DNA of 64,000 nt. Origin: Gemmatimonadota bacterium (lineage in GTDB: Bacteria > Gemmatimonadota > Gemmatimonadetes > Gemmatimonadales > GWC2-71-9). This document shows, in pieces, positions 1,887 through 15,538 of this stretch. The DNA is taken from NCBI GenBank assembly GCA_041691295.1, contig JBEPVA010000002.1:4271-68270 (forward strand), given 5' to 3'. Under the pieces are notes generated by a model, which saw only the letters and a list, made by a program, of their open reading frames with translations, made no database searches and had not been told where the DNA came from. Each line of letters starts with the position of its first letter. Position 1 is the stretch's first letter. The position numbers were made by a program, and so were the translations under genes.

Positions 1887-2603
1887 TCAGAACCGATCCC
1901 AGAACCAGGACACCGCGCCGGTGAGCGGCGCGGGCGCCGCCACATATCCACCGAGTACCAGGCCGACCCAGATCGCCAGCAGGTACAGCACCACGGTCGT
2001 CAGCCAGAACGGCCAGCTCGGCCTGACCCAGTGGCGGATCGTGGCGATTTCGCCGGACCAGAGCGGCGCCTCCCGGGCCAGCGCCTCCTCGAGTTCGCGC
2101 CAGGCGCTCTCCTGCCGCCGAGCCGCGGCGGCCACCGCTTCGAGCCACTCAGTTCCGATTCCGCTGGACGCGGCCGGTGACGCGGACAGGAGGCGACGAA
2201 TGCGCTCGAGTTCCTCGAGTGCCGTCAGCAGACTGGCGCCGCCTTCGCCCAGCCGAGCGGTGAGCGCCCGGCGGTCCGCCTCGGTCATCAGGAACCGGTC
2301 AAGCCGCTGCTTCGGCAATCGGCTCGCGGTGGCGGCCTGGCGCAGTTGGCCTTCCACCACGGTGACCACGCGTGCCGCCACCGACTTCAGGGTCTCCTGC
2401 CATGCCTCTGACCACCCGGCCGCAGTCAGCACCTCCGGCGCGGAGTCTCCGGCCATCCGGGCCGAGCCGGCCAGCTTGAACAACCTGGTGGCGAGCGCCA
2501 GTCGGAGGTCATCCACCGCCAGCCACGCGGCCGGCCTGGCTCTGGGCGCTGCGGCCAGGCGGCCGAGGTAGGGCCCGAGCTCCGGTAGTGCGAGCGTCAT
2601 CAT
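1887..2603 (-). CDS. hypothetical helical protein with C-terminal transmembrane anchor
   Basis: 238 aa ORF with Ala/Leu/Arg/Glu-rich helical sequence and a C-terminal hydrophobic segment (WPFWLTTVVLYLLAIWVGLVLGG). Its start overlaps the stop of the HAD gene (2600-2603). No family recognised. Confidence 0.55.
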   Translation of the reverse strand: MMTLALPELGPYLGRLAAAPRARPAAWLAVDDLRLALATRLFKLAGSARMAGDSAPEVLTAAGWSEAWQETLKSVAARVVTVVEGQLRQAATASRLPKQRLDRFLMTEADRRALTARLGEGGASLLTALEELERIRRLLSASPAASSGIGTEWLEAVAAAARRQESAWRELEEALAREAPLWSGEIATIRHWVRPSWPFWLTTVVLYLLAIWVGLVLGGYVAAPAPLTGAVSWFWDRF

Positions 2604-3295
2604 TCCAGGATGGCTGTCATGACACGATCAGTCTGGCTCAGGTCTTCAAAGGCGGCGTAGGCGCCGGCCGCCAGCAGTTCGGCGGTGGAGTAGGATCCGG
2701 TGGCCACGGCGATAGCCCGGGCTCCCACGCTGCGGCCACAGGTCACATCCGCGGGCGTGTCACCGATGATCACGATCTCTTCCCCGGCCGGGCGGCGACC
2801 GAAATGCAGCTCGGCCCGTGCTACCGCGATCGGCGGCAATTCGGGTCGGGCGGCCGCGTCCGAGCCGTACGCGCCCAGCAGGAAGCGATTGTGTGCGATG
2901 CCAGCCGCTCGAAGCTTGAGTTCGGCACCGCGCGAGATATTGCCGGTGAGCAGCCCGAGGACCACGCTCGGTTCCGCCTCGAGGCGTTCGATCAGGTCGT
3001 GGATGCCGGGCAGGACCCGGGTCCGGTGGCCGTGGGTTTCCAGTTCCAGTTCGAGCAGACCGGCGTAGCGGGCGCAGAGCAGATCGATACGCTCGCGGGT
3101 GGGGGCAGGGCAACCGGCGCCGACCAGCATTTCGTGGACGATCTGCGGATCGGTTTTGCCATCGAACCGGATCCCGTCGAACCCCGCGACGTCAGCCACT
3201 TCGGGAGTCAGTGCCGCCACGATGGCCCGCTTTCCGGCTCCGGCGGAGAGCAGAATGGTGCCATCGATATCGAGCAGGACGAGTCGGCGCTTCAC
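2600..3295 (-). CDS. HAD-superfamily hydrolase (phosphoglycolate phosphatase-like)
   Basis: MKRRLVLLDIDGTIL (DxDGT motif I), later ...LLTGN... and ...IIGDTPADV (motif IV). Confidence 0.8.
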   Translation of the reverse strand: MKRRLVLLDIDGTILLSAGAGKRAIVAALTPEVADVAGFDGIRFDGKTDPQIVHEMLVGAGCPAPTRERIDLLCARYAGLLELELETHGHRTRVLPGIHDLIERLEAEPSVVLGLLTGNISRGAELKLRAAGIAHNRFLLGAYGSDAAARPELPPIAVARAELHFGRRPAGEEIVIIGDTPADVTCGRSVGARAIAVATGSYSTAELLAAGAYAAFEDLSQTDRVMTAILE

Positions 3296-4101
3296 GGGCG
3301 GGCCAGCCGCCGCCGGGCCACCTGGCGTTCTCGTAGCATGAAGGCTCGGCTGCCGGGTTGGGACGGTTCACGGACGAAGCCGCCGCAAGCCACGGAGCTG
3401 TGAATCAATTCCTCTTCCGGTCCGGCAATGGCAACGTGGGTGATTCGATCGGAGCCCTCCGTGAAGAAGAGCAGGTCATCGACCGCTTCGTTTCCCGGCT
3501 CGACGGGCACGCCTTCGGTGGCCTGGACCCGGGCGTCACGGCTGAGCTGGATCCCGCGGGCCAGGCAGAGCGTCTGCAGCAGCCCGGAGCAATCGACTCC
3601 CCAGGGAGTCACTCCGCCCCACTGATAGGGTGTGCCGGCGAAGACGGCCACTGCCGTGCGCCAGAGCGGCTCCGCCGAATGGCGCGCGGTGAGAACAGAC
3701 CGGGGAGTAATCTGTCCGGCGAGAATCGTGGCTTTGCGGCCATCGGGAAGGACCACCTTGGCATCCCGCAGTTCCAGTCGGGCACGGACCGGCAGCTTGA
3801 GGCGTACCGCAGGCGCGGAATCGGTCGCGGCCACTTCGACCACCGCACCCTCACTCCAGGCGCTGGCCCTGTGGCTCCAGTCCTCGACCGCTTCGACGTC
3901 AGCTTCGATCAGATAGCCCCGGTGGACCCAGCCTTCGTAGTGATCGCCGGCCAGCCGGACCCGGCGCCAGTCATCGCGCTGTTCGAGGACCCGGCCGGTT
4001 TCGCCCAGGACGAGCTGGGTGACCTGTTCGCTGCGAAGCGAGGGTGCAGCGGTGACCGGCGTCGTGGCGGCGCGGCCGATGATGGCGGTCGAGGCGGTCA
4101 T
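3292..4101 (-). CDS. NlpC/P60 (C40) peptidoglycan endopeptidase with N-terminal SH3-like region
   Basis: GTPYQWGGVTPWGVDCSGLLQTLCLARGI ... DRITHVAIA gives the catalytic Cys/His pattern of NlpC/P60. There is a 4-nt ATGA overlap with the upstream small gene. Confidence 0.85.
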   Translation of the reverse strand: MTASTAIIGRAATTPVTAAPSLRSEQVTQLVLGETGRVLEQRDDWRRVRLAGDHYEGWVHRGYLIEADVEAVEDWSHRASAWSEGAVVEVAATDSAPAVRLKLPVRARLELRDAKVVLPDGRKATILAGQITPRSVLTARHSAEPLWRTAVAVFAGTPYQWGGVTPWGVDCSGLLQTLCLARGIQLSRDARVQATEGVPVEPGNEAVDDLLFFTEGSDRITHVAIAGPEEELIHSSVACGGFVREPSQPGSRAFMLRERQVARRRLARP

Positions 4102-4298
4102 GTCCCGGGCGGCGGGGCACCCGAGCCGTCGCCGTCAGGATGGCTCGCGGCGCAGCTGCGGCAGCGAACGACTCCGCGGAAGGTGCAGACCAGACAGATG
4201 AAGGTGCCACAGCCGCGACAGGGATAGCCCTCGGACGCGCGCTCCTCGCGGCCGCAGGCCCGGCAGAGCATGGCGTCGTGTTCTTTCAGTTCTGCCAT
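4098..4298 (-). CDS. small cysteine-rich zinc-ribbon protein (four CxxC pairs)
   Basis: 66 aa: ...LCRACG...PCRGCG..ICLVCT...RCRSCA... GC-rich third codon positions. The stop overlaps the start of the NlpC/P60 gene (ATGA at 4098-4101). First gene of the operon. Confidence 0.6.
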   Translation of the reverse strand: MAELKEHDAMLCRACGREERASEGYPCRGCGTFICLVCTFRGVVRCRSCAASHPDGDGSGAPPPGT

Positions 4299-4391: not shown

Positions 4392-5738
4392 CTACAATGG
4401 AATCGCATACCGTTTGATCTTGTTGATCAGGGTCGCCCGGGAGATGGCCAGCTCCTGCGCCGCCCTGGTCCGGTTGCCATTGTGGTAGCGCAGGGTCCGT
4501 TCGATGTGGCCCCGCTCCAGCTCATCGACGGTCATCGGGGTGTGGCGCCGGTCACCGAAGCCGGGGCGGGCCCGGAACTCCGATGGCAAATGCTCTACTC
4601 CAACCGCCGCCTGGCCGTTGGCCAGGATCAGGGACCGTTCGATCACGTTGCGCATCTCGCGCACATTCCCCGGCCAGGCATAGCTCAGCAGCCGCTCCAG
4701 CGCCTCGGACCCGATCGCGGCCGGGCCGCCCGTGACGTGGCGTTGCAGGTCGTTGAGCAGGCGGTTGATCAGCAGCAGCTTGTCCTCACGGGTCCGGTCG
4801 CGGAGCGGCGGCAGCTCGATCGGCATCACGTTGAGCCGGTACTGCAGGTCTTCCCGGAACCGGCCGGCTTCGACGTCAGCCGCGAGGTTCCTGGTCGTGG
4901 CGGCGATCAGCCTGACATCGACCTCGACCTCACGGGTGCCACCGACCCGACGGAAGCTGCGGGTCTCGAGGGCCTTGAGCAGCTTGGGCTGCAGTTCCAG
5001 CGGTAGATCGCCAACCTCTTGCAGGTAGACCGTGCCGCCATCGGCAATCTCGAACAGCCCACGGCGCCGTTCCATGGCCCCTTCCACGGCTCCCTTTTCC
5101 GCGCCAAACAGCTCCGCATCAAGGGTACCAACCGGCAGTCCCCAGCAGGACAGCTGCACGAACGGATGGCCCGAACGCGGGCTCAGCCGGTGCAGCAGCG
5201 ATGCCAGCCAGCTTTTGCCGACACCCGGCTCACCGCGGAGCAGCACGGTGGTCCGTTCGTTCTGGGCCAGGAGCCCGAGCTGGCGCTGGAGATCCCGCAT
5301 CGCTGGTGAGGTGCCGAGCGCTTCGAGGCCATCGGTAGGCAGGGTGTTGAGCAGCAGCCGTTCGTTGAGCCGGCGGAGCCGGACCTTGTCGGCCACCCGG
5401 GCGGTCGCCGCCACCAGGTGCGCCATGTCCACCGGTTTGGAGAGGAAGTTCTCGGCACCAAGTTGCATCGCCTTGACGGCGGTGGCAACATCGGCGGCGC
5501 CGGTCAGCAGGATGACCGCGGCATTCCGTTCCTTCAACCGTTCCAGCACCTCGAGTCCGTCCATTCCCGGCAGCCGGAGATCCAGCACCACGACTTCCGG
5601 TCTGAGCCGGTCATAGGTGGCCAGTCCGTCCTCACCGCTCAGTTCGCGGGACACCTCGTAGCCCAGCTGCTCGAAATATCCTCCGAGCGAGCGCAGGACA
5701 TCCGCGTCATCATCGATCAGCAGTACCGAATCAGCCAT
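4392..5738 (-). CDS. sigma54-dependent response regulator (NtrC family: REC + AAA+ + HTH)
   Basis: N-terminal REC (LLIDDDADVL...VVLDLRLPGMDG), Walker A GEPGVGKSWLA, and a C-terminal Fis-type HTH (RTRAAQELAISRATLINKIKRY). Confidence 0.9.
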   Translation of the reverse strand: MADSVLLIDDDADVLRSLGGYFEQLGYEVSRELSGEDGLATYDRLRPEVVVLDLRLPGMDGLEVLERLKERNAAVILLTGAADVATAVKAMQLGAENFLSKPVDMAHLVAATARVADKVRLRRLNERLLLNTLPTDGLEALGTSPAMRDLQRQLGLLAQNERTTVLLRGEPGVGKSWLASLLHRLSPRSGHPFVQLSCWGLPVGTLDAELFGAEKGAVEGAMERRRGLFEIADGGTVYLQEVGDLPLELQPKLLKALETRSFRRVGGTREVEVDVRLIAATTRNLAADVEAGRFREDLQYRLNVMPIELPPLRDRTREDKLLLINRLLNDLQRHVTGGPAAIGSEALERLLSYAWPGNVREMRNVIERSLILANGQAAVGVEHLPSEFRARPGFGDRRHTPMTVDELERGHIERTLRYHNGNRTRAAQELAISRATLINKIKRYAIPL

Positions 5739-8007
5739 TGATCACCTTCCCCGGGGCGCCGGTGCGGGGCAGCTCAAACCAGAAAGCCGCTCCGCCGGTC
5801 GCGAGATTCTTGACCTGGATGTCGCCACCGTGCGCCCGGATGATACCGTGGGATATCGAAAGTCCCAAACCGGTGCCTTCACCCACGCCCTTGGTGGTAA
5901 AGAACGGTTCGAAAATCTTGGGCAGGACATCCGGCGCAATGCCGGTGCCCGAGTCGCACACCTCGCAACCCACCACCCGGTCGGTGGACCAGGTCCGGAT
6001 CACCCCTTCACCGCCGCCCCGTCCCGCCATCGACTGGGTGGCGTTGAGCAGCAAGTTGGTCAGCACCTGCTGCAGCTGTTCGGCATCACCCGGCACTTCG
6101 GGGAGCCGGTCGTCCAGATCGAGCGACCAGCGCGCCCCTTCGGTGGCCCGGGGTGTTCCGGCCAGGGCGTTGCGAATGACCTGGTTGAGATCGGTCTCGC
6201 TGCGCTTGAGTGGCCGCTGCCGGGCAAAGGTCAGCAACTCGGTGACGATGCGAGCGGCCCGGACCGCTTCCCGCCGGATCGAATCGGCCACGCTGGCGGT
6301 ATCCTGGCTGGCGGCCGGGTCGAGTGACAGCGCCTGGGCCAGGGCCGCGATCCCGGCCAGGGGGTTGTTCAACTCGTGAGCGACCCCGGAGACCAGCTGG
6401 CCCAGGGCCGCCAGCTTTTCGGAATGGGTGACCCGCTCCCGCAGCTTGACTTCGTCGGTCACATCCCGGGCGATCAGCAGCACCGAGCGGTCGTTGCCCG
6501 CTTCATCGTAGGCCACCGCTACCGCATCGGCTACCCGGCTGCTGCCGTCGAGCCGGGCGACGTGAAAGGTGAAGGCCCGGGTTTCGCCCCGGAAGCTGGC
6601 GGCCAGGTGAGCCTCGACCTGGAACAGCTCGTCGGGCTGGATGAAATCTCCCACCCGCCGGCCCCGATCCCGCCGGCCCAGCTCGGCCAATCCCACCGCG
6701 GCGTGATTGACCGACTGGAAGCGGTAATCGCGGCTGACCGTGAAGATGGCCAGTGGTGCGGCCGCGAACAGGGCCCGGAACCGGGCCTCGGAGCGGCGCA
6801 GCGCTTCGCTTGAATGCCGCTCGCGGGTGACATCCCGGATCACCGCGACGGTACCGGTCCGGGTGCCCCGCTCCTCGAGCGGCGCCTGTGAAACGGCAGC
6901 GTACCTGGGACCATCGGCGTGAGCCACCGTCGCGGTGTACCGCGCCAGCGGCGGTGATTCCTCGCTGGGACGGTCGTCCGGCGGCAGCAGGGTATCGAGC
7001 AGCTGGCCATGCAACTCAGCGCTGGTCCGGTCAAACAGTTCGCAGGCCGTCCGATTGGCAAAGACCAGGTGTCCGTCGGGATCCGCTATGACGATGGCGT
7101 CCTCGGCGGTCTGGACCAGCCGGGTGAACCGCTCCTCGAGCTGGACCAGCGCCGTGAGATCCTCGACTGCGACCACCAGTCCGCCCATCGGCCTTGGGGT
7201 GGCGGTGACCACCAGATGACGGCCATCCCGGCCCTCGAGCGGCTGGCTGACCCGCATGTTGGTCGCAATGGCCTGGAGCAGCGGATCGTCGGCCGGCGAG
7301 GGCCACGCCGGAAACAGGCTCCTGATATTGAGGCCCGGCAGCGCGGTGACCGGAACGCCGGCCAGGTCGGCCAGGAAGCGATTGCCCCGGCTGACGTGGC
7401 CAGTGGCCTCGACCAGGGCCAGGCCGCTGCCGGTCCCGTCAAAGGCCGACTGCCATTCCCGCTTGATCCTCGACACCTGGTCGAGCAGCCGGCTCTTGCC
7501 GATGGCCAGCGCCGCGATCTCCGCATAGGCCGAGGCGATGCCGCGTTCATCCGGCGGATAGGCGCGGGGCTGATCGTGATACAGTGCGATCGACCCGATC
7601 ACTTCGCCGGCGAAACGGAGCGGGAGTGCCGCCAGCGCCGCGATCCCTTCCCGGGCCGCCTCCAGCTTGAGCGGATGGTCGGGGTCGGCGGCGATATCGG
7701 TCACGAAATACGGCTCGCCGGCCTGGACCGCCGCAGCCACCGACGGATAATCGCGCAGCCGGCTTACTGCCGTCTGGATGTATCCCGACGAGAGCCCGAT
7801 CGAGAAGCGGCACTCGACCGCGCCGCGAGGCCGGTCGAAGATGAAGACCGCCGCCCGCTCCGCCTCGAACACTCGCAGCCCCTCGAGGGCGCTGGCCTGC
7901 ATCGCGCCTTCGGCGTCCTCGGATTCGGTGAAGCGGTGGGCCAGCCGCCCCAGCGCCTCGACCTGCGCCAGCCGGCGGGTCAGTTGTTCGGGGCTGGCGA
8001 CCGTCAT
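5731..8007 (-). CDS. sensor histidine kinase with GAF and PAS domains
   Basis: 758 aa. H-box VAHELNNPLAGI. HATPase N/G boxes (NLLLNATQSM, GTGLGLSISHGII). Upstream GAF/PAS-like segments. 8-nt overlap with the response regulator gene. Confidence 0.9.
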   Translation of the reverse strand: MTVASPEQLTRRLAQVEALGRLAHRFTESEDAEGAMQASALEGLRVFEAERAAVFIFDRPRGAVECRFSIGLSSGYIQTAVSRLRDYPSVAAAVQAGEPYFVTDIAADPDHPLKLEAAREGIAALAALPLRFAGEVIGSIALYHDQPRAYPPDERGIASAYAEIAALAIGKSRLLDQVSRIKREWQSAFDGTGSGLALVEATGHVSRGNRFLADLAGVPVTALPGLNIRSLFPAWPSPADDPLLQAIATNMRVSQPLEGRDGRHLVVTATPRPMGGLVVAVEDLTALVQLEERFTRLVQTAEDAIVIADPDGHLVFANRTACELFDRTSAELHGQLLDTLLPPDDRPSEESPPLARYTATVAHADGPRYAAVSQAPLEERGTRTGTVAVIRDVTRERHSSEALRRSEARFRALFAAAPLAIFTVSRDYRFQSVNHAAVGLAELGRRDRGRRVGDFIQPDELFQVEAHLAASFRGETRAFTFHVARLDGSSRVADAVAVAYDEAGNDRSVLLIARDVTDEVKLRERVTHSEKLAALGQLVSGVAHELNNPLAGIAALAQALSLDPAASQDTASVADSIRREAVRAARIVTELLTFARQRPLKRSETDLNQVIRNALAGTPRATEGARWSLDLDDRLPEVPGDAEQLQQVLTNLLLNATQSMAGRGGGEGVIRTWSTDRVVGCEVCDSGTGIAPDVLPKIFEPFFTTKGVGEGTGLGLSISHGIIRAHGGDIQVKNLATGGAAFWFELPRTGAPGKVING

Positions 8008-8906
8008 GGAATGCAGACGTCCAGCGCCAGGGGAACCACGGTGACCACCAGCGGAGTGCTGCCGGCCACGTCACCATCGATCTGGACCGGCTCGGGTACG
8101 GCCGCTTCGACCCGGATTTCCCGTCCCCGCGCGTGGGCCACGAAGCCGCCATCGGCATCGAGCGTATGGTGCTCGCGGAGCAGGTCCAGGATGGCGCGCA
8201 CGCCGCCGAAGAAGCCGTTGCCGCTCATCAGGATCAGGTCGAGCAGGCCATCATCGAAGGAAATGTCCCGCTTCAGCTTGACGATCGGCGGGATGATCTC
8301 CCTGCAGTTGGCGATCATCGCAATGGTGGCCGGCACTTCGAGCACCACCCCGTCCACGGTGATCCGGTGCGGCACCCGCTTGATCTTCGGAATCAGCCGG
8401 AACGTGGTGGCCACGTAGGCGCCGAACCCCCAGCGCCGCTTGAATTCCGGCGGAGTTCCTCCCATGACGCGGGCGTCGTACCCCGCCCCGCACGCCACCG
8501 CGAAGTAGTGCACGCCGTCGGGCCGTTCGACCCGGCCCAGGTCGATCCGCCGCTTCCTGCCCGCCAGCAGTACCCGGGCCGCTTTGACCGGATCCGAAGG
8601 GATCCGAAGGTTGCCGGCGAGCAGATTGCCGGTGCCACCCGGAATGGCACAGATCCGGGTATCCGATCCGACCGCGGCGCCGGCCGCCTGCATGATGGTA
8701 CCGTCCCCGCCGAGGACCACGATCGCCTCGACTCGTTCCCGCACCGCGGCCTCGGCCAGCAGGCTGGCGGCGCCCGGACCGGTGGTCCGTTCCAGATCCA
8801 CCGCCCAACCGCCACCAGTGAGGGTCTCGACCACCGCCCGCTCGGCGGACTCCTTCATGCGCGAGGCGGCGGGGTTGGCGATCAGCAGGGCCCGAGGCGC
8901 GCTCAA
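8004..8906 (-). CDS. diacylglycerol kinase family lipid kinase (YegS/DAGK-like)
   Basis: LLIANPAASR... and the VVLGGDGTIMQAA (GGDGT) motif. Overlaps both the TamB stop and the kinase start by 4 nt. Confidence 0.85.
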   Translation of the reverse strand: MSAPRALLIANPAASRMKESAERAVVETLTGGGWAVDLERTTGPGAASLLAEAAVRERVEAIVVLGGDGTIMQAAGAAVGSDTRICAIPGGTGNLLAGNLRIPSDPVKAARVLLAGRKRRIDLGRVERPDGVHYFAVACGAGYDARVMGGTPPEFKRRWGFGAYVATTFRLIPKIKRVPHRITVDGVVLEVPATIAMIANCREIIPPIVKLKRDISFDDGLLDLILMSGNGFFGGVRAILDLLREHHTLDADGGFVAHARGREIRVEAAVPEPVQIDGDVAGSTPLVVTVVPLALDVCIP

Positions 8907-11900
8907 TGCTCCCGCTCCCAGATCAGGTCGACACCGAACTGGTAGCGACCCCGGTCCTGAAGGCTCCGCAGCGTGAGCAGGTCGGTACAGCTGGCCACTG
9001 GCTCCAGGGTCGCGCTCAAACGGAATTCTCGGCTCAGTCGATACTCCACGTCAGGGTAGAAGCGGGTCTGGTTGGTGCAGACATCGGCGTGCACCGTCAC
9101 GAAGAACGAATGTCCGATCCGCCAGCCAGCCGCCAACTGGGCCACCTGGGAGGCGCCGTTCTGGGTGGCGGCGCCCGGACGAGAGATGCTGCCTGGCCGG
9201 ATTTCGATGTAGTCGATCGGCAGTCGCAGGTCGGTGACCAGGGTGCGCTGCAGCTCACTCGACAGCGCACTGGAAAGATACGACATCGCCGAGGTGACGG
9301 CGGTCTGGTCGGCGCTGGCCCCCGCCTCGCCGGAGGAGATCGAGCTCCGGCCGAACATCAGGTAGCTGACCAGTTCGGTCGTGCTCAGGGCGCCGCGGGA
9401 GGCGTCGGTGGTCAGCTCCAGCTTGGGTGCCAGCATCGTGCCGGTGATGTGAGCAATCACCGGCAGCTCCTCGTTGCCGCTGACATTGTCGGTGGTGTGG
9501 ACCACATGCCGGGCCGTAATGTCGAGGTCGGCATTGAGGCTGGGGTTGCCGTAGTACTGCACCGTGCCGTGTTCGACGCTGAAATCGCGGATCACCGGGC
9601 CGACCCGGAGCTGGTAGCTCCCCCGCACGGTGGACAGGGTGCCATCGACCCGGTAGTTGGCCCGCTGTTTGTTGACCAGCAGGCTGCCTTCAAGCTGGAC
9701 GTTGGCTTCGCTCGAGCGCAGCCAGAACGATTCGCCCATGGTCACCCGGAGATCCTGGATGGTCAGCGAATCGAGGAACCGCTTCATGAACGTGTTGCCC
9801 AGCCGGGCCGTGCGCAGCTGCTCGAGGTCGATCAGCGAGCTGTCGCCCGGGTTCTCGAGATCCACCACCCGCTTGTTGATCAGGTCCGCGAAGTAATAGG
9901 CCCCTTCATTGGCCGTGACCCGGCCGGAGATGGTGGGCAGCAGCGGCGAACCGGTGATCTTCAGGTCACCGGACGCGTTGAGGCTGGCCACGCCGCGGAT
10001 ATCCATCGCCTGAAAATTGTCGGGCTTGAGCGTCAGGTTGAGCAGCGGGTGCGTGAGCTTCTCCAGCCGCAGCCCGCCGGTGACTTCCAGGCTGCCCTTG
10101 CCGCCATTGAGCCGGAATGACTCCAGGCTGATCGAATCGCCGTGGAAAATCGCCTTGCCGGTGATGTTGTCGTAGCGGACTCCCAGCCCCGGCAGGTTGG
10201 CCCCGACTCCGCGCAGGGCCAGCGTCCCGGACAGTGCCGGCGCGTCCCAGGTGCCACCCAGTTCGGCATCGACCGCCAGCGAGCCGGTGACCTGACGGAC
10301 CGCGCGGGTGACCGCCTCGAGTATCGTCAGGTCCGTACTGTCGGAGTGGGCCCGGATCAGGATCGGACCCGGCAGCTGCCGCTTGGCCACCTTGTGCAGC
10401 GCCAGATCGAGTGGCAGCGCCGCCTCGAGCTGCATGATCGAGGCGCCGGTCTTCCAGACATCCAGGTTGGCCTTGAGCTTCTGGTCGGTGTAGAGCACCG
10501 ATCCCTGGATGAACGGAGTGGAGAAATCCCCCAGCCCGACATCAGCCAGGGCCAGCCCGCCGTGAATTTCCGGCTTGGCCGCCGTACCGGTGAGCTCGAG
10601 ATTGAGCGAGAAGGTGCCGTGGACCTGGGTGGTATCCCACTGCAGCATGGCGTACACATCCCGGATCGGGACGCTCGCCGCTGACAGCCGCAACTGACCA
10701 CCCGCCGCGCGCGGCAGCAGGCCGCCGATCCTGAGTTCGCCGGCGCCATCCTCGGCCTCGAACCGCATCGGGGATACGGCGACCACCGAATCGCCGACCA
10801 GCGCCCGGGACGGCGCGACCAGCCGCCAGCTGTGGTCGGGCAGCACCGCCCGCAGCGAGTCGAGCACCACGAGGTAGCCCAGTGGCAGGCGCTGCATGGT
10901 GCCGGTCGAACTGGCCCGGCCCAGCCGGCCGATGTCGACGCTGCCGCCCCAGCCCAGCGAGTCGGTGAACCCGGCTGCGTGGAGATCGGCGTTGTGCAGC
11001 GACCATTGCCCGATACTGAGTGAGTCGAACACCACCGCGACGGCGCTCCGGGGGCGGACCCCGCCAATCCACGCCAGGTCGATCGAATCGGCCGGCGACC
11101 GCAGGCTGCGCCAGGACAGGTCGCGGACTTCCAGCTGGGCACGGGCGTCCAGCGAATCGAACGAGCCACGGAGCCGCACCAGGCCGCTGGCCGTTCCGTC
11201 GAGCGGATGGGCCCTGGCCACGCTGTCGCTGGCCTCGCCGAGCAGCAGGGTGGCCACGGTATCGAACGGGGTGAGTCGCGCGGCGGCCAGTTGCAGCGTC
11301 AGTTCACCGTCCTGATCGCGGTGCCAGCCCAGTTCACCCCGGCCATCGAGCCGGCCATCCTGCCAGACGGCGGTGAGGGTGTCGAACACCAGCCGGCCGC
11401 CGGTGGCGTCCACCGCCACGGCCATGCTGTCGAAGGCAAAGGCATCGATGCTGCCGGGAGAGAGTCTGGCGTCGAGCCTTCCCTCCGGTGGGACCAGTGA
11501 ATCGATCACCCCATTGACCTTGAGCGTGCCCGCCAGCGCCGTGCTCGGTCCCTTGCCCAGCAATTGGGGCAGGTCGACATGATCGAAGACCACAGTCAGG
11601 CTCTCGGCGCCAAGCCGGGGCGGCAGCACCGTGAGGCCACCGTCCGCCTTGATGTGACCGACCTGGCCTTCGACCTCGGCGTGAGTCTGGAGGTGGGCCA
11701 GCGGTCCCTGCAGCTTAACCGGACCGTGGATTTCGCCGCGGGCGGTCATCCCGGGAAAGCTGCCGCGGATCCCGTCGAACGAGAGCGGATTCAGCAGGCC
11801 CTCGACGTCGAATACCACGTCATCCTTGCGAGTATCGAGCCCCAGCTTGCCCTCGACCGTGCTGACCGGCCGCTCGCCGTCCTGGTGATCCATGGTGCCG

Positions 11901-13339
11901 TTGAACATCACGTTGCGCAGGCTGCCGTTGACGCTGCCCGATGCGGCCACCCGTCCGTTGAGCGGCACCGCCGGCGCCAGCCGACGCACCGTGCGCAGGT
12001 CGATATCGCTGGAGTCGACCTCCACCTCGTCGAAGTACAGCCCGGCATCCCCGCCCAGCCGCACTCGGCCCTTCATGGCGATTTCGGTTTCGGCCGGCGC
12101 CGGCACCCTGGCATCCTCGAACAGCCAGTTGACGTCGATCGCCATGTCGGTGAGATAACCATCGCCACGGGTGGGGCCGGTCAGCTTTCCCTCGAACGGC
12201 AGGTCCGGCACGAATGGCTTCATCACCGACAGATCGAGATGGTCGAGATCCAGATCCATGCCCTTGAAGCCGAGTCCCCGCTTCTGGTCCACCAGCAGGG
12301 TGACCTTGCCCTTGAGCGCGCCGGGCGCACCGCTGAGCGCGAGGTCGCTGAGCTGGTAATCGGTTTTGGTATCACTTTCCGACTTGGCGACCACCTTGCC
12401 CTTGCCGGCCAGCGGCGGCAGCCCCGGATTGATCCAGAGCAGGTCGTTGAGATTGAGCCGCGCTGCGTTGAAGCGGAAGTCGAACAGGATCGGGCCACGC
12501 GGCCAGGTCACGGTGCCGCCACCCTGCACCCGGGTGTCAGGCAGCGCGGCGTGAGCGGCGGTGAACTGCAGGCTGTCTCCCGCGGTCCATCCGTGGGCCA
12601 CGAGATGCGTGATGGTCAGCGCTGGATCGCTGATCCGGGTGGCCAGCGTATCGATCTCGAACGCAAAGGGCTCGTGCTTCGGAGTGGTGAGCCGCAACTT
12701 CGGGAAGTGCGCGGTGAGCGGCACGAACCGGATCACCTTCTTCAAGCCGTCGGGGCTGGGATCGATTTCCCGGCCCGGATGCGCCCGGTCCGCCGCCAGC
12801 GCCGCCGCAATTCCCGACGGGGTGTGCACGCTATCAGGCGCCGACCACGGCATCGAGAGGACGAGATTGGCCTGGCGTACCCAAACGTCGTGAAATTCGA
12901 CCAGTGGGCCGGGCTTGCCGCTGGGCGGACCTTCGCTGAGCTTGAGCACCTCTTCGTAATTCATCCGACCGTTGGCCCGCTTGGTCAGGTGCACGGTGGG
13001 GCTGTCGAGCTCGACCCGGGTCAGCACCAGGTTCCTGGCCAGCAGGGTGGAGAGATTATAGGTCACCCGCAGCCGGGGAAACTGGGCCAGCAGCGCGCCT
13101 GAGGTGTCACGTACCACCACATTGCGCAGCGTCAGCGAGCGCAGGATCGAACCGGAGACCGCGCCGATCTGGAATTGGCCGCGAAGATTCCGGCTCAGCC
13201 GGTCGCCGATGACCCGGGCCAGCACGCCCCGGCCGGGCCCGCTGAACAACAGCACCATCACCACCGCCAGGACGATGGGCAGGCTGCTGATGAACAGCGC
13301 AAGGAAGAGGCGGCCAGTGTGCTTGAGGAATCGGCGCAT
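8903..13339 (-). CDS. tamB: TamB-like translocation and assembly module protein (AsmA-like/DUF490 family)
   Basis: 1478 aa. N-terminal TM anchor (LFLALFISSLPIVLAVVMVLLF), a very long beta-rich body, and a TamB-like C-terminal region. The start (13339) directly abuts the stop of the Omp85 gene (13340). Confidence 0.8.
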   Translation of the reverse strand: MRRFLKHTGRLFLALFISSLPIVLAVVMVLLFSGPGRGVLARVIGDRLSRNLRGQFQIGAVSGSILRSLTLRNVVVRDTSGALLAQFPRLRVTYNLSTLLARNLVLTRVELDSPTVHLTKRANGRMNYEEVLKLSEGPPSGKPGPLVEFHDVWVRQANLVLSMPWSAPDSVHTPSGIAAALAADRAHPGREIDPSPDGLKKVIRFVPLTAHFPKLRLTTPKHEPFAFEIDTLATRISDPALTITHLVAHGWTAGDSLQFTAAHAALPDTRVQGGGTVTWPRGPILFDFRFNAARLNLNDLLWINPGLPPLAGKGKVVAKSESDTKTDYQLSDLALSGAPGALKGKVTLLVDQKRGLGFKGMDLDLDHLDLSVMKPFVPDLPFEGKLTGPTRGDGYLTDMAIDVNWLFEDARVPAPAETEIAMKGRVRLGGDAGLYFDEVEVDSSDIDLRTVRRLAPAVPLNGRVAASGSVNGSLRNVMFNGTMDHQDGERPVSTVEGKLGLDTRKDDVVFDVEGLLNPLSFDGIRGSFPGMTARGEIHGPVKLQGPLAHLQTHAEVEGQVGHIKADGGLTVLPPRLGAESLTVVFDHVDLPQLLGKGPSTALAGTLKVNGVIDSLVPPEGRLDARLSPGSIDAFAFDSMAVAVDATGGRLVFDTLTAVWQDGRLDGRGELGWHRDQDGELTLQLAAARLTPFDTVATLLLGEASDSVARAHPLDGTASGLVRLRGSFDSLDARAQLEVRDLSWRSLRSPADSIDLAWIGGVRPRSAVAVVFDSLSIGQWSLHNADLHAAGFTDSLGWGGSVDIGRLGRASSTGTMQRLPLGYLVVLDSLRAVLPDHSWRLVAPSRALVGDSVVAVSPMRFEAEDGAGELRIGGLLPRAAGGQLRLSAASVPIRDVYAMLQWDTTQVHGTFSLNLELTGTAAKPEIHGGLALADVGLGDFSTPFIQGSVLYTDQKLKANLDVWKTGASIMQLEAALPLDLALHKVAKRQLPGPILIRAHSDSTDLTILEAVTRAVRQVTGSLAVDAELGGTWDAPALSGTLALRGVGANLPGLGVRYDNITGKAIFHGDSISLESFRLNGGKGSLEVTGGLRLEKLTHPLLNLTLKPDNFQAMDIRGVASLNASGDLKITGSPLLPTISGRVTANEGAYYFADLINKRVVDLENPGDSSLIDLEQLRTARLGNTFMKRFLDSLTIQDLRVTMGESFWLRSSEANVQLEGSLLVNKQRANYRVDGTLSTVRGSYQLRVGPVIRDFSVEHGTVQYYGNPSLNADLDITARHVVHTTDNVSGNEELPVIAHITGTMLAPKLELTTDASRGALSTTELVSYLMFGRSSISSGEAGASADQTAVTSAMSYLSSALSSELQRTLVTDLRLPIDYIEIRPGSISRPGAATQNGASQVAQLAAGWRIGHSFFVTVHADVCTNQTRFYPDVEYRLSREFRLSATLEPVASCTDLLTLRSLQDRGRYQFGVDLIWEREH

Positions 13340-15472
13340 CTAGAAGGGCTGCCCCACGGCAAAGTGCAGATTCCACCCGCTGCCGCGGGGCTTGGAGTAC
13401 GCCGATTTCACCAGCCGGATATTGCCCTGGCTGTCCTGCAGGTAGAGCGGGCCCGGCGTACCGGGATAGCTATTGTAGGCCAGGTCAAGACGGATCGGCC
13501 CGATCGGGGTGCCGAATCGGAGTCCGACCCCCGGCGTGATCCGGAACTGGGCGGGGGCCAGGTCGGTCTTACCGCGCTGGTACAGGATCCCGCCGTCGAC
13601 AAACCCCGCCAGCCGCAGCCGCGAGGAAAGCAGCGGCGACGGCACCCGGATCTCGACATTGGCAACCCCGAGCGTGTTCCCGCCCGTCGGCGAAAAGGTG
13701 CTCCGAATGGTGCCGTCGCTGATCTTCTGTTCCAGCGACGGAGTCAGCACGGCGCTGTCGGTGTAGGCCACGTAGACCAGCGGGCCCAGGCCGTTCACAT
13801 CGTAGCCCCGCACATCGTTGGGCCCGCCGGCATAGAACCGCTGCTCGGGCGGCACGAATTCCGTCGCGGTGCCGTTGACGTCGACCTTGGGTGAAAACAG
13901 CATCCCGCCCCGCAACCGCCAGCTGAGTGTCACGTCCCGGGTCAGCGCCCGGTACCACGCTGCATCGGCCTGCACCCGGACGAACTGCTGCAACTTGGAG
14001 GATCCGATGATCGGCGAGCTGTACCCGAGCTCGAGCGAATAGGCACGGCCGCGGCTGGGATCGACTGGATTGTTGGTCTGGATCGAGCTGATGACCCCGG
14101 TGAGCTCCGCCCCCAGCCGCCCCTGGGACAACAGCAGCCGGTCCTGCGGGGTGCAGGCGTTGAAGAAGGCGCAGTAGTTTCCCGGAGTCGCGTAGGTCCG
14201 GCCGAATGAGGCCCGGTAGGTCAGCGAGATCGGCAGCCGCGGCTCCGGCAGGTACGTGGCCCGGACCGCGGCACCGATTTCATCCCGGCGATAGACCTGA
14301 AACTGGCTGCGCCGCTCGCCGAAGAACGAGAAGGTCCCCTCGGTGCGGGACGAGAAGAACCGGGGCTGACCCACGGTGGCGGTGACGTTGTAGTTGGCCA
14401 CACTCGATCCGACCGAGTCGGCCTTAAGGGTGGAGCAGATCGAATTCTTCAGACCAAAATTGAACGGAGTCCCCACCCCGATCTTCGACAGGCTGGCGCT
14501 GAGATCGAACTGGCGGCCGCTGTGAAACAGGTTCCGGTCGGTGTAGCCGGCGCCCAGCCGGAAGCAGTCCTCGGTGGCGTACCCGATCTGGCCCCGGTAC
14601 TTGAACCGCCGCCCTTCGCTGACGGTCACCACCAGTGGCACCACCGAATCGTCGGGCTGGAACCCGGCTGAATCGATCTGCACCGACACGGTGCGGAACA
14701 ACTGGGTGCGGGCCAGCCGATGCTGGCTCTCGTCGAGATCCTGCTGGTCGAACGATTCGCCCCGGTCGACCACCAGCATCTGCCGGATGAAGGTGGTATC
14801 GACGTTGACCTTGCCGGCCACCGTAATCCCGCCGTACACCGCTCCCCGCCCCGGCAGTGCATCCAGCGACACCTGCACCGTCCTGGCCACCTTGTCGATC
14901 GAAAAGTTGCGCAGCACATCGGCCGACGGGTGACCGTGGTTCCGCAGCCGGGCCACCAGGGTGTCGGCACTGGCCTGGAACAGGAACCGGTCGAACGACC
15001 GGCCGATCCGGAGCGGCAGGTCCTGGGTCAGCTTCCTGGCGTCGGGCAGCGAGTCGAGTCCGGTGACGGCCAGCGAAGTGACCACGACCGGCGGACCCTC
15101 GGTAATCTTGAAGGTGACGCTGACTTCCTTCGGCTTGCGGATCACGACGGTGTCGACCTTCACCTCGAGAAATCCGCTCTGCTTGTACAGCAGCCCGATC
15201 CGCAGCACGTCTCGGCGGAACTCGGTTTCGTCGAACACCCGCTTTTGACCGAGGCCGATCCAGCGCACCAGCTTGCTGCGGGCAAACCAGGCCGAGTTGG
15301 TGGTGGCGATGGCGGAACTCAGGGCGTCGCTGGTGAGAGACTTGTTGCCGGTGAATTTGAGTCCCCTGACGATCCGATCGGGTTCCTGCGCCGAGGCGGA
15401 CCGGACCCCCGTCACGATCAGGAGGAGTCCGGCCAGCGCCGTGCTCAGATGGAGACGGCCGATCAGGGGCAT
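13340..15472 (-). CDS. Omp85-family outer membrane protein assembly factor (BamA/TamA-like) with POTRA domains
   Basis: Signal peptide MPLIGRLHLSTALAGLLLIVTGVRSASAQ. The track's TTG at 15505 is the maximal extension. POTRA-like IVRGLKFTGNKSLTSDAL. C-terminal beta-barrel ending ...HFAVGQPF (terminal Phe beta-signal). Confidence 0.85.
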   Translation of the reverse strand: MPLIGRLHLSTALAGLLLIVTGVRSASAQEPDRIVRGLKFTGNKSLTSDALSSAIATTNSAWFARSKLVRWIGLGQKRVFDETEFRRDVLRIGLLYKQSGFLEVKVDTVVIRKPKEVSVTFKITEGPPVVVTSLAVTGLDSLPDARKLTQDLPLRIGRSFDRFLFQASADTLVARLRNHGHPSADVLRNFSIDKVARTVQVSLDALPGRGAVYGGITVAGKVNVDTTFIRQMLVVDRGESFDQQDLDESQHRLARTQLFRTVSVQIDSAGFQPDDSVVPLVVTVSEGRRFKYRGQIGYATEDCFRLGAGYTDRNLFHSGRQFDLSASLSKIGVGTPFNFGLKNSICSTLKADSVGSSVANYNVTATVGQPRFFSSRTEGTFSFFGERRSQFQVYRRDEIGAAVRATYLPEPRLPISLTYRASFGRTYATPGNYCAFFNACTPQDRLLLSQGRLGAELTGVISSIQTNNPVDPSRGRAYSLELGYSSPIIGSSKLQQFVRVQADAAWYRALTRDVTLSWRLRGGMLFSPKVDVNGTATEFVPPEQRFYAGGPNDVRGYDVNGLGPLVYVAYTDSAVLTPSLEQKISDGTIRSTFSPTGGNTLGVANVEIRVPSPLLSSRLRLAGFVDGGILYQRGKTDLAPAQFRITPGVGLRFGTPIGPIRLDLAYNSYPGTPGPLYLQDSQGNIRLVKSAYSKPRGSGWNLHFAVGQPF

Positions 15473-15538
15473 GAGGGCAGCAGGCGAGACCTGAATTCCA
15501 GACAAGAGCGCCGGGCCGACAGAGCCCGGCGGCGTTGA

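Follow-up and report, generated by a model that had tools for sequence, protein, structure and literature searches.

TamB is one of the AsmA-like proteins that have been connected with the transport of phospholipids to the outer membrane (PMC8593681, PMC8912898, PMC11014939, PMC13119328). In E. coli, TamB, YhdP and YdbH are redundant and jointly essential for the supply of phospholipid to the outer membrane (PMC8593681, PMC8912898). The DUF490 region of TamB joins TamA in a hybrid barrel and forms a lipophilic channel (PMC13119328). The route that phospholipids take to the outer membrane and the balance of their flow are an active open question, for which TamB is a main conduit candidate. Here we analyzed a window of 64,000 nt from a soil bacterium of the Gemmatimonadota, order Gemmatimonadales (assembly GCA_041691295.1, contig JBEPVA010000002.1, positions 4,271 to 68,270). 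In it, the genes for a TamA-like Omp85 protein, TamB and a soluble lipid kinase related to DgkB are translationally coupled. A preliminary description of the stretch had read these three genes, together with the histidine kinase (HK) and sigma-54-type response regulator genes that follow them, as a regulated lipid-handling module. The coupling of the TamA-like and TamB genes to a DAGK-family kinase was kept in relatives, whereas the dedicated sigma-54 two-component system proved not to be part of the core.

The arrangement most like that of the window is the tamA-tamB pair (ytfM-ytfN) of E. coli and other Proteobacteria, in which the gene for an Omp85 protein with three POTRA domains also lies directly upstream of the gene for an anchored TamB with a C-terminal DUF490 domain. 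Unlike the proteobacterial translocation and assembly module (TAM), both window proteins were far below the NCBIfam equivalog cut-offs for TamA and TamB, the barrel was about 100 aa larger, and tamB was translationally coupled to a lipid kinase gene. The tam operon of E. coli goes on with ytfP, and yegS is located elsewhere.

The kinase resembled the DgkB proteins of Bacillus and Staphylococcus (PDB 2qv7, 3s40, 3t5p), with which it shared solubility, the fold family made up of DAGK_cat and the YegS_C beta-sandwich, and a full-length alignment conserving the GGDGT, GGTxN, DDGxLD and DGE motifs. Soluble DgkB turns diacylglycerol (DAG) back into phosphatidic acid, and S. aureus DgkB is recruited to the membrane by GdpS (PMC11962490). 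Unlike the hosts of DgkB, the organism of the window has two membranes and no known lipoteichoic acid pathway; its kinase is paired in the genome with TamB and not with a GGDEF protein, and the substrate is here predicted from sequence. The preliminary description had not recognised the arrangement as a described system. This agreed with our literature search, which found no link of TamB with a DAG or other lipid kinase or with YegS, and a kinase was not mentioned in a review of TAM. A lipid enzyme long kept coupled to tamB would be a genetic hint that TamB works in coordination with the recycling of lipids, and the kinase is a concrete candidate for a partner of TamB.

Conservation of the TamA-like, TamB and kinase linkage

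The five packed minus-strand genes of the preliminary description were all recovered as open reading frames (ORFs) at the coordinates it gave (Table 1), and every domain identity that it proposed was confirmed by Pfam. As read from the sequence, the TAG stop codon of the Omp85 gene (13342-13340) abuts the ATG of tamB (13339). The TGA stop of tamB shares the sequence TTGA with the start of the kinase gene, which begins with TTG and is preceded, at a distance of a few bases, by GGGAG/GGAG. The overlaps between the kinase and HK genes (as ATGA) and between the HK and regulator genes (8 nt) were likewise confirmed. Consensus scans placed no internal promoter-like or terminator-like site at the gene junctions, and their overall yield was at chance level (2 promoter-like sites against 1.2 expected; 7 terminator-like sites against 5.0 expected).

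The window's genome and 29 relatives, drawn from its own family and a sister family, supplied a first set of 30 loci. In all 27 where the contig permitted, TamB immediately preceded the kinase; the other three loci began inside the kinase. Among 80 Gemmatimonadales loci, TamB adjoined the kinase in 79, again all of those in which the contig permitted it. The order in these loci was Omp85, TamB, kinase, HK where present, regulator, a cysteine-rich mini-protein, an NlpC/P60 peptidase, a HAD hydrolase and a membrane-anchored protein of unassigned function.

For the phylum, 151 genomes sampled evenly from the Gemmatimonadota were searched with a kinase profile and the Pfam TamB model. In the window's own family, same-strand adjacency was found in 66 of 72 genomes among the matches listed, and the matched TamB and kinase stretches were just 6-21 nt apart in 46 of these 66. 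Three of the remaining six genomes showed the adjacency in their loci, and at least one had its match at a contig end. Both genomes of the sister family (2/2) and at least eight genomes of a third family of the order also had TamB next to the kinase.

Four other families of the class showed the order Omp85, TamB, HtpX-type M48 protease, kinase and UvrA (loci among L121-L127). TamB identity in these families was about 25%. When ten neighbour genes were used as queries there, Omp85, TamB and the kinase alone were co-located, and the other seven were not nearby. The NlpC/P60, HAD and membrane-anchored genes showed no TamB linkage outside the order. Two large homology searches (kinase, distant orthologues) returned Gemmatimonadota alone among the best 120 matches, and one scan of genome contigs gave Gemmatimonadales matches alone. 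The carriers were mostly uncultured soil Gemmatimonadales.

Since the arrangement was found again in more than 100 related genomes, it is well beyond chance. In the window's own family and in the sister family, practically all genomes have the TamA-like, TamB and kinase genes tightly adjacent. A chance juxtaposition, which the preliminary description had named as the outcome that would speak against its module, was thus not borne out by the survey of tamB neighbourhoods within the Gemmatimonadota. The linkage that it expected in related genomes held across the order for the TamA-like, TamB and DAGK_cat kinase genes and failed for the HK and regulator, which formed a variable insert.

The coupled proteins and the regulator slot

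The lipid kinase matched DAGK_cat (PF00781, E 5.7e-24, 84.5 bits against a cut-off of 23.6) and YegS_C (PF19279, E 3.6e-14, 53.3 bits against a cut-off of 27). A profile of its orthologues matched, in the PDB, the Bacillus DAG kinase/BmrU (E ~8e-45), S. aureus DgkB (9e-40) and YegS (1e-27), and the matches also included sphingosine kinase and AGK in the TIM22 complex (7cgp). With the single sequence, the match to Bacillus homologues was modest (77.8 bits, E 8.9e-21). The motifs GGDGT, GGTGN, DDGxLD and the C-terminal DG[DE] were invariant in 19 kinase orthologues and aligned to the same motifs of the Bacillus DAG kinase/BmrU. There was no clear transmembrane segment, with one marginal hydrophobic 19-mer near residue 280. 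Because the kinase fell below every curated equivalog or subfamily cut-off of NCBIfam (TIGR00147, 99.6 against 118.65; best model NF002033, 146 against 293), it was regarded as a divergent member of the family. DgkA (PF01219) was found in 0 of 10 Gemmatimonadota genomes searched while the control genomes were positive, indicating that a DAG kinase is needed in the searched genomes. A second DAGK_cat paralogue with 29% identity was located at G000:C252:2950-3834, and similar paralogues were widespread in the class.

TamB matched PF04357 (TamB/DUF490, E 6.9e-52, 177 bits against a cut-off of 22.4) over residues 1079-1446, the single match to this family in the genome, and its N-terminus gave a weak DUF748/YhdP-like Pfam match. 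The sole hydrophobic segment in its 1478 aa was at residues ~8 to 45, an N-terminal inner-membrane anchor ahead of a long region predicted to be periplasmic. With 106.3 bits against a cut-off of 825 for the proteobacterial TamB model (NCBIfam NF047952), the window protein is by its profile scores a distant member of the TamB family and not an equivalog. AsmA (PF05170) had no match in the window's genome, nor in five genomes of the family that were searched. A fusion of TamB and kinase was hinted at by long open frames and was discarded, the two genes being in different frames at the locus that was checked (G024). Second TAM-like pairs were present in some Gemmatimonadales genomes (L135, L136 and L137, in G033, G141 and G165); at L137 TamB precedes the Omp85 gene, the opposite of the usual order.

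For the Omp85 protein, the ATG at 15472 gives the signal peptide MPLIGRLHLSTALAGLLLIVTGVRSASA and a length of 710 aa, in line with the preliminary estimate, while the longest ORF would begin at 15505. Pfam recognised the Omp85 family (E 3.3e-36) and three POTRA stretches. An AlphaFold model made with 35 orthologues (mean pLDDT 84.5) had POTRA folds at ~33-125, ~129-207 and ~211-287, each beta-alpha-alpha-beta-beta, and a 16-strand barrel with long loops at ~290-710. The extra length was accounted for by the enlarged barrel and an insert in POTRA1. As the model shows three POTRA units and then the barrel, the predicted architecture is of the TamA type. NCBIfam scores were below the cut-offs for TamA (NF047950, 108 bits against 625), for TamL (NF052279, 95 against 400) and for the best-scoring model, BamA (TIGR03303, 219 against 297). 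The signal peptide had no Cys lipobox, so the protein is not TamL-like. A separate BamA-like, full-length Omp85 with an open frame of 808 aa was found on another contig (G000:C92) and is presumably BamA, and BamA-like proteins of ~810-850 aa were present in 10 of 10 genomes checked. The protein that the preliminary description had placed between classical TamA and BamA in size is a TamA-type protein with an enlarged barrel.

The slot behind the kinase was measured as the distance from the kinase to the mini-protein in 95 Gemmatimonadales genomes with the kinase. It was empty (below 0.4 kb) in 14 genomes. In 51 genomes it spanned 0.4-2.1 kb, mostly ~1.4-1.5 kb, or about one gene, which was the regulator wherever loci show it. 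Slots of 2.1-3.2 kb were found in 8 genomes and of 3.2-5.2 kb in 14, seven of the latter lying at ~3.7 kb, the spacing of the window with its HK and regulator. Two genomes exceeded 5.2 kb, and for six the distance was unresolved. About a quarter of the 80 loci (~21-22) had an HK gene separating kinase and regulator. In loci without HK, the spacer from kinase to regulator was mostly 60-220 nt, and the spacing from regulator to mini-protein was ~15-20 nt in most loci, so that the regulator's tie to the genes that follow it is no weaker than its tie to the TAM genes. The HK and the regulator are later, lineage-specific inserts in a variable slot and do not belong to the core.

The HK contained GAF, two PAS_4 stretches, HisKA and HATPase_c (Pfam), had an intact H-box (HELNNPL) and intact G1/G2 boxes, and lacked any hydrophobic segment. 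In the regulator, Pfam identified Response_reg, Sigma54_activat (E 5.7e-55), AAA_lid_14 and HTH_8, and the closest solved relative was Aquifex NtrC1 (E 6e-85). Alignment to NtrC1 showed that the GAFTGA loop reads GAVEGA (F to V, T to E; region of residues ~224-246) and that the Walker B sequence LDEIGE is changed to LQEVGD, the Asp being replaced by Gln. The receiver Asp, the Walker A motif and the RFREDL arginine-finger region were intact. All 16 HK-linked regulators tabulated had a degenerate GAFTGA loop. Stand-alone regulators without an HK mostly keep GAFTDA, and for these sister-genus orthologues, in which F and T are kept, use of sigma-54 may still be possible.

Altered loops of this kind are found in the atypical enhancer-binding proteins VpsR, TyrR, HupR, PhhR and NtrX, some of which also have non-consensus Walker motifs; such proteins work with sigma-70 RNA polymerase, as VpsR does, or as repressors (PMC6158489). 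The window regulator shares with them the NtrC-type architecture, the AAA+ Sigma54_activat domain and the altered GAFTGA loop.

The genome contains rpoN. Scans for GG-N10-GC by regular expression and match count took in, for up to 76 loci, 260 nt ahead of the Omp85 gene and the spacers that separate the regulator from the kinase and from the mini-protein; the window and the whole genome were also scanned. No conserved GG-N10-GC was found upstream of the Omp85 gene or in either spacer in up to 76 loci, and the window had no intergenic site of at least 9/11 near the operon, the Omp85 leader included. A GG-N10-GC in the regulator-mini-protein spacer of the window (TGGGAGAGGGGATGC) was not conserved and was taken as a chance occurrence. 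The search for sigma-54 promoters suggested in the preliminary description thus yielded nothing conserved at the operon. Given GAVEGA, the Gln in Walker B and the lack of a conserved sigma-54 promoter nearby, the regulator is probably an atypical, sigma-54-independent DNA-binding protein. A domain-level label such as sigma-54 regulator can therefore mislead, as the contact loop has decayed here and the regulators are changeable inserts.

Proposed function and alternative readings

With some reserve, we lean towards reading the locus as a Gemmatimonadales form of the TAM operon, with an old core of tamA-like, tamB and DgkB-like kinase genes, in which the kinase recycles DAG alongside the lipid supply by TamB and the regulators are later inserts. 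TamB would sit with its anchor in the inner membrane, dock to the TamA-like barrel and, as in E. coli, deliver phospholipid to the outer membrane. On the cytoplasmic side of the inner membrane, the kinase would turn DAG released by head-group transfers in the envelope back into phosphatidic acid, and co-expression would keep lipid recycling in pace with the growth of the outer membrane. The atypical regulator of this genome would act on DNA without sigma-54. A stronger version of this proposal, which we consider unlikely, is that TamB and the kinase, possibly with the mini-protein, form a physical and functional unit. In it the inner-membrane end of TamB, in a part like that of GdpS towards DgkB, would draw the soluble kinase to the opening of the lipid bridge, and DAG would be phosphorylated where lipids enter or leave. 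If true, this would amount to a chemical checkpoint on the lipid species flowing to the outer membrane.

It is also possible, though in our judgement rather doubtful, that the gene order has been inherited without any joint function, a housekeeping kinase having stayed behind tamB in a packed, slowly rearranging region, with the coupling a product of compact genome architecture. Several observations point this way and weigh against a coordinated role of TamB and the kinase. Genes without a functional relation (UvrA, HAD, AcpS) are part of the chain, so adjacency in this compact genome need not mean a common pathway, and in other orders the kinase is followed by UvrA. One family of the class keeps the kinase with HtpX and UvrA while TamB lies 54 kb away. 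In one genus of the third family the kinase alone has moved elsewhere (G031, G035, G078; loci L113, L114), and another genus of that family has no orthologue of it. TamB is present and the kinase orthologue absent in one family of the class and in three sampled families of other classes. The second TAM copies are without a lipid kinase, and the DAGK_cat paralogue on C252 could, by its sequence, serve as the housekeeping DAG kinase. On the other side, an order kept merely by slow rearrangement does not fit well with the four distant families, where Omp85, TamB and the kinase alone of the ten neighbours remained together at ~25% TamB identity, nor with the short distances of 6-21 nt in 46 of the 66 own-family genomes. 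The kinase, moreover, stays with one TamB orthologue and not with the second TAM copies.

The identity of the substrate bears on the proposed recycling as well. Instead of DAG, the kinase might phosphorylate monoacylglycerol, a ceramide or sphingoid base, or phosphatidylglycerol, the last being the substrate reported for YegS; or it might have a mainly structural role beside TamB, like mitochondrial AGK in the TIM22 insertase. Substrates in the DAGK_cat family are diverse, its PDB matches include YegS, sphingosine kinase and AGK in TIM22 (7cgp), and the protein lies below every NCBIfam cut-off, including TIGR00147 (99.6 against 118.65). The closest solved relatives are by a wide margin DAG kinases of the DgkB type, however, and the need for a DAG kinase in genomes without DgkA also favours DAG. 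A purely structural role is disfavoured because all catalytic motifs are conserved. Taken together, we regard both of these options as improbable. More improbable still is the five-gene module of the preliminary description, in which a signal sensed by the PAS/GAF kinase with its sigma-54 activator would lead to expression of the TamAB-kinase genes from a sigma-54 promoter. In its favour, all five genes overlap or abut in the window, rpoN is present, the Sigma54_activat match is strong (E 5.7e-55), and regulator orthologues of the same group occupy the slot in most of the order. It is opposed by GAVEGA and the Walker B Gln, by the degenerate loop in 16 of 16 tabulated HK-linked regulators, and by the missing GG-N10-GC conservation upstream of the Omp85 gene and in the spacers, with no site of at least 9/11 in the leader of the window. 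About three quarters of the relatives have no HK, and 14 genomes have nothing in the slot. Where the HK is lacking, the regulator mostly stands 60-220 nt from the kinase but is packed against the mini-protein, and is thus tied downstream.

Gene layout and neighbouring features

The features of the locus are collected in Table 1. The minus-strand chain runs on past the regulator: after a gap of 93 nt come the genes for the mini-protein, the NlpC/P60 peptidase, the HAD hydrolase and the membrane-anchored protein. A G+C-rich hairpin was found 37-59 nt upstream of the Omp85 start codon. As no gene on the same strand ends upstream of it, this putative structure may be a leader or attenuator.

Table 1 Features of the locus, in window coordinates
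Feature	Position	Strand	Basis or remark
TamA-like Omp85, 710 aa	13340-15472	minus	ORF, Pfam, AlphaFold
TamB, 1478 aa	8903-13339	minus	ORF, Pfam
Soluble DgkB/BmrU-like lipid kinase, 300 aa	8004-8906	minus	ORF, Pfam
Histidine kinase (HK), GAF-PAS-PAS, cytoplasmic, 758 aa	5731-8007	minus	ORF, Pfam
Response regulator, NtrC family, 448 aa	4392-5738	minus	ORF, Pfam
Mini-protein, 66 aa, four CxxC pairs (8-Cys)	4098-4298	minus	Constant downstream end of the variable slot
SH3-NlpC/P60 peptidase	3292-4101	minus	Pfam
HAD hydrolase	2600-3295	minus	Pfam
Membrane-anchored protein, function unassigned	1887-2603	minus	
G+C-rich hairpin with T-rich tail, Omp85 leader	15509-15531	minus	Terminator-like match, 9 pairs (8 G-C)

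The mini-protein had a nearly invariant core, DAMxCRACGREERASEGYPCxxCGTFICLxCxFRGVxxCxxC, with 22 invariant columns in 30 orthologues. It was present in 100 of 106 sampled Gemmatimonadales genomes, and elsewhere in the phylum one marginal match was obtained (E 3.7e-4). Its gene directly followed the kinase in 14 genomes and stood directly behind TamB where the kinase was gone or relocated (G031, G035, G078, G113), indicating that it is not tied to the kinase. Matches to C1_2 were obtained for 16 of 30 orthologues, all below the Pfam cut-off (best E 7.6e-5), and there was no significant match to PDB sequences or by Foldseek, the PHD, C1, RING and ZZ folds all having E >0.3. On these grounds assignment as a C1 domain was rejected; by its predicted fold, the mini-protein is a generic cross-brace double-zinc module. 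The presence of such a small Cys-rich module alongside a DAGK_cat kinase recalls the eukaryotic diacylglycerol kinases, which combine C1 and DAGK_cat. Unlike in these enzymes, the C1_2 matches here are sub-threshold and the module remains where the kinase has gone.

Directly after the kinase stop, an AT-rich motif, GACTGTTTAATTTCTGG, with CATGGCGCG before it, was conserved in L040, L041, L042, L059 and other loci. It was considered as an internal promoter and rejected, with one match in one genome among 60 genera and none in the window's genome.

A candidate sigma-54-dependent small RNA was noticed at L078:15855-16036 (minus strand), with a near-consensus promoter, TGGCAC-N5-TTGC, and also at L063, L074, L077, L079, L081, L086, L092, L098 and L104. 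It was found in 27 of the 151 phylum genomes, in seven sister genera of the family, and was absent from the window's genome. A link between the regulator and this RNA was rejected, because the presence of the RNA does not follow the state of the GAFTGA loop and the window's genome lacks it. No Rfam family matched the RNA. The element is ~180 nt long from promoter to terminator and lies on the opposite strand, convergent with the chain, ~5-8 kb beyond the mini-protein. It consists of a variable 5' hairpin, a highly conserved core (GUGGUAGGUCGAAGAAGGGUGGAGCGG...) and an intrinsic terminator, and an 11-bp helix in which compensatory changes occur closes the core.

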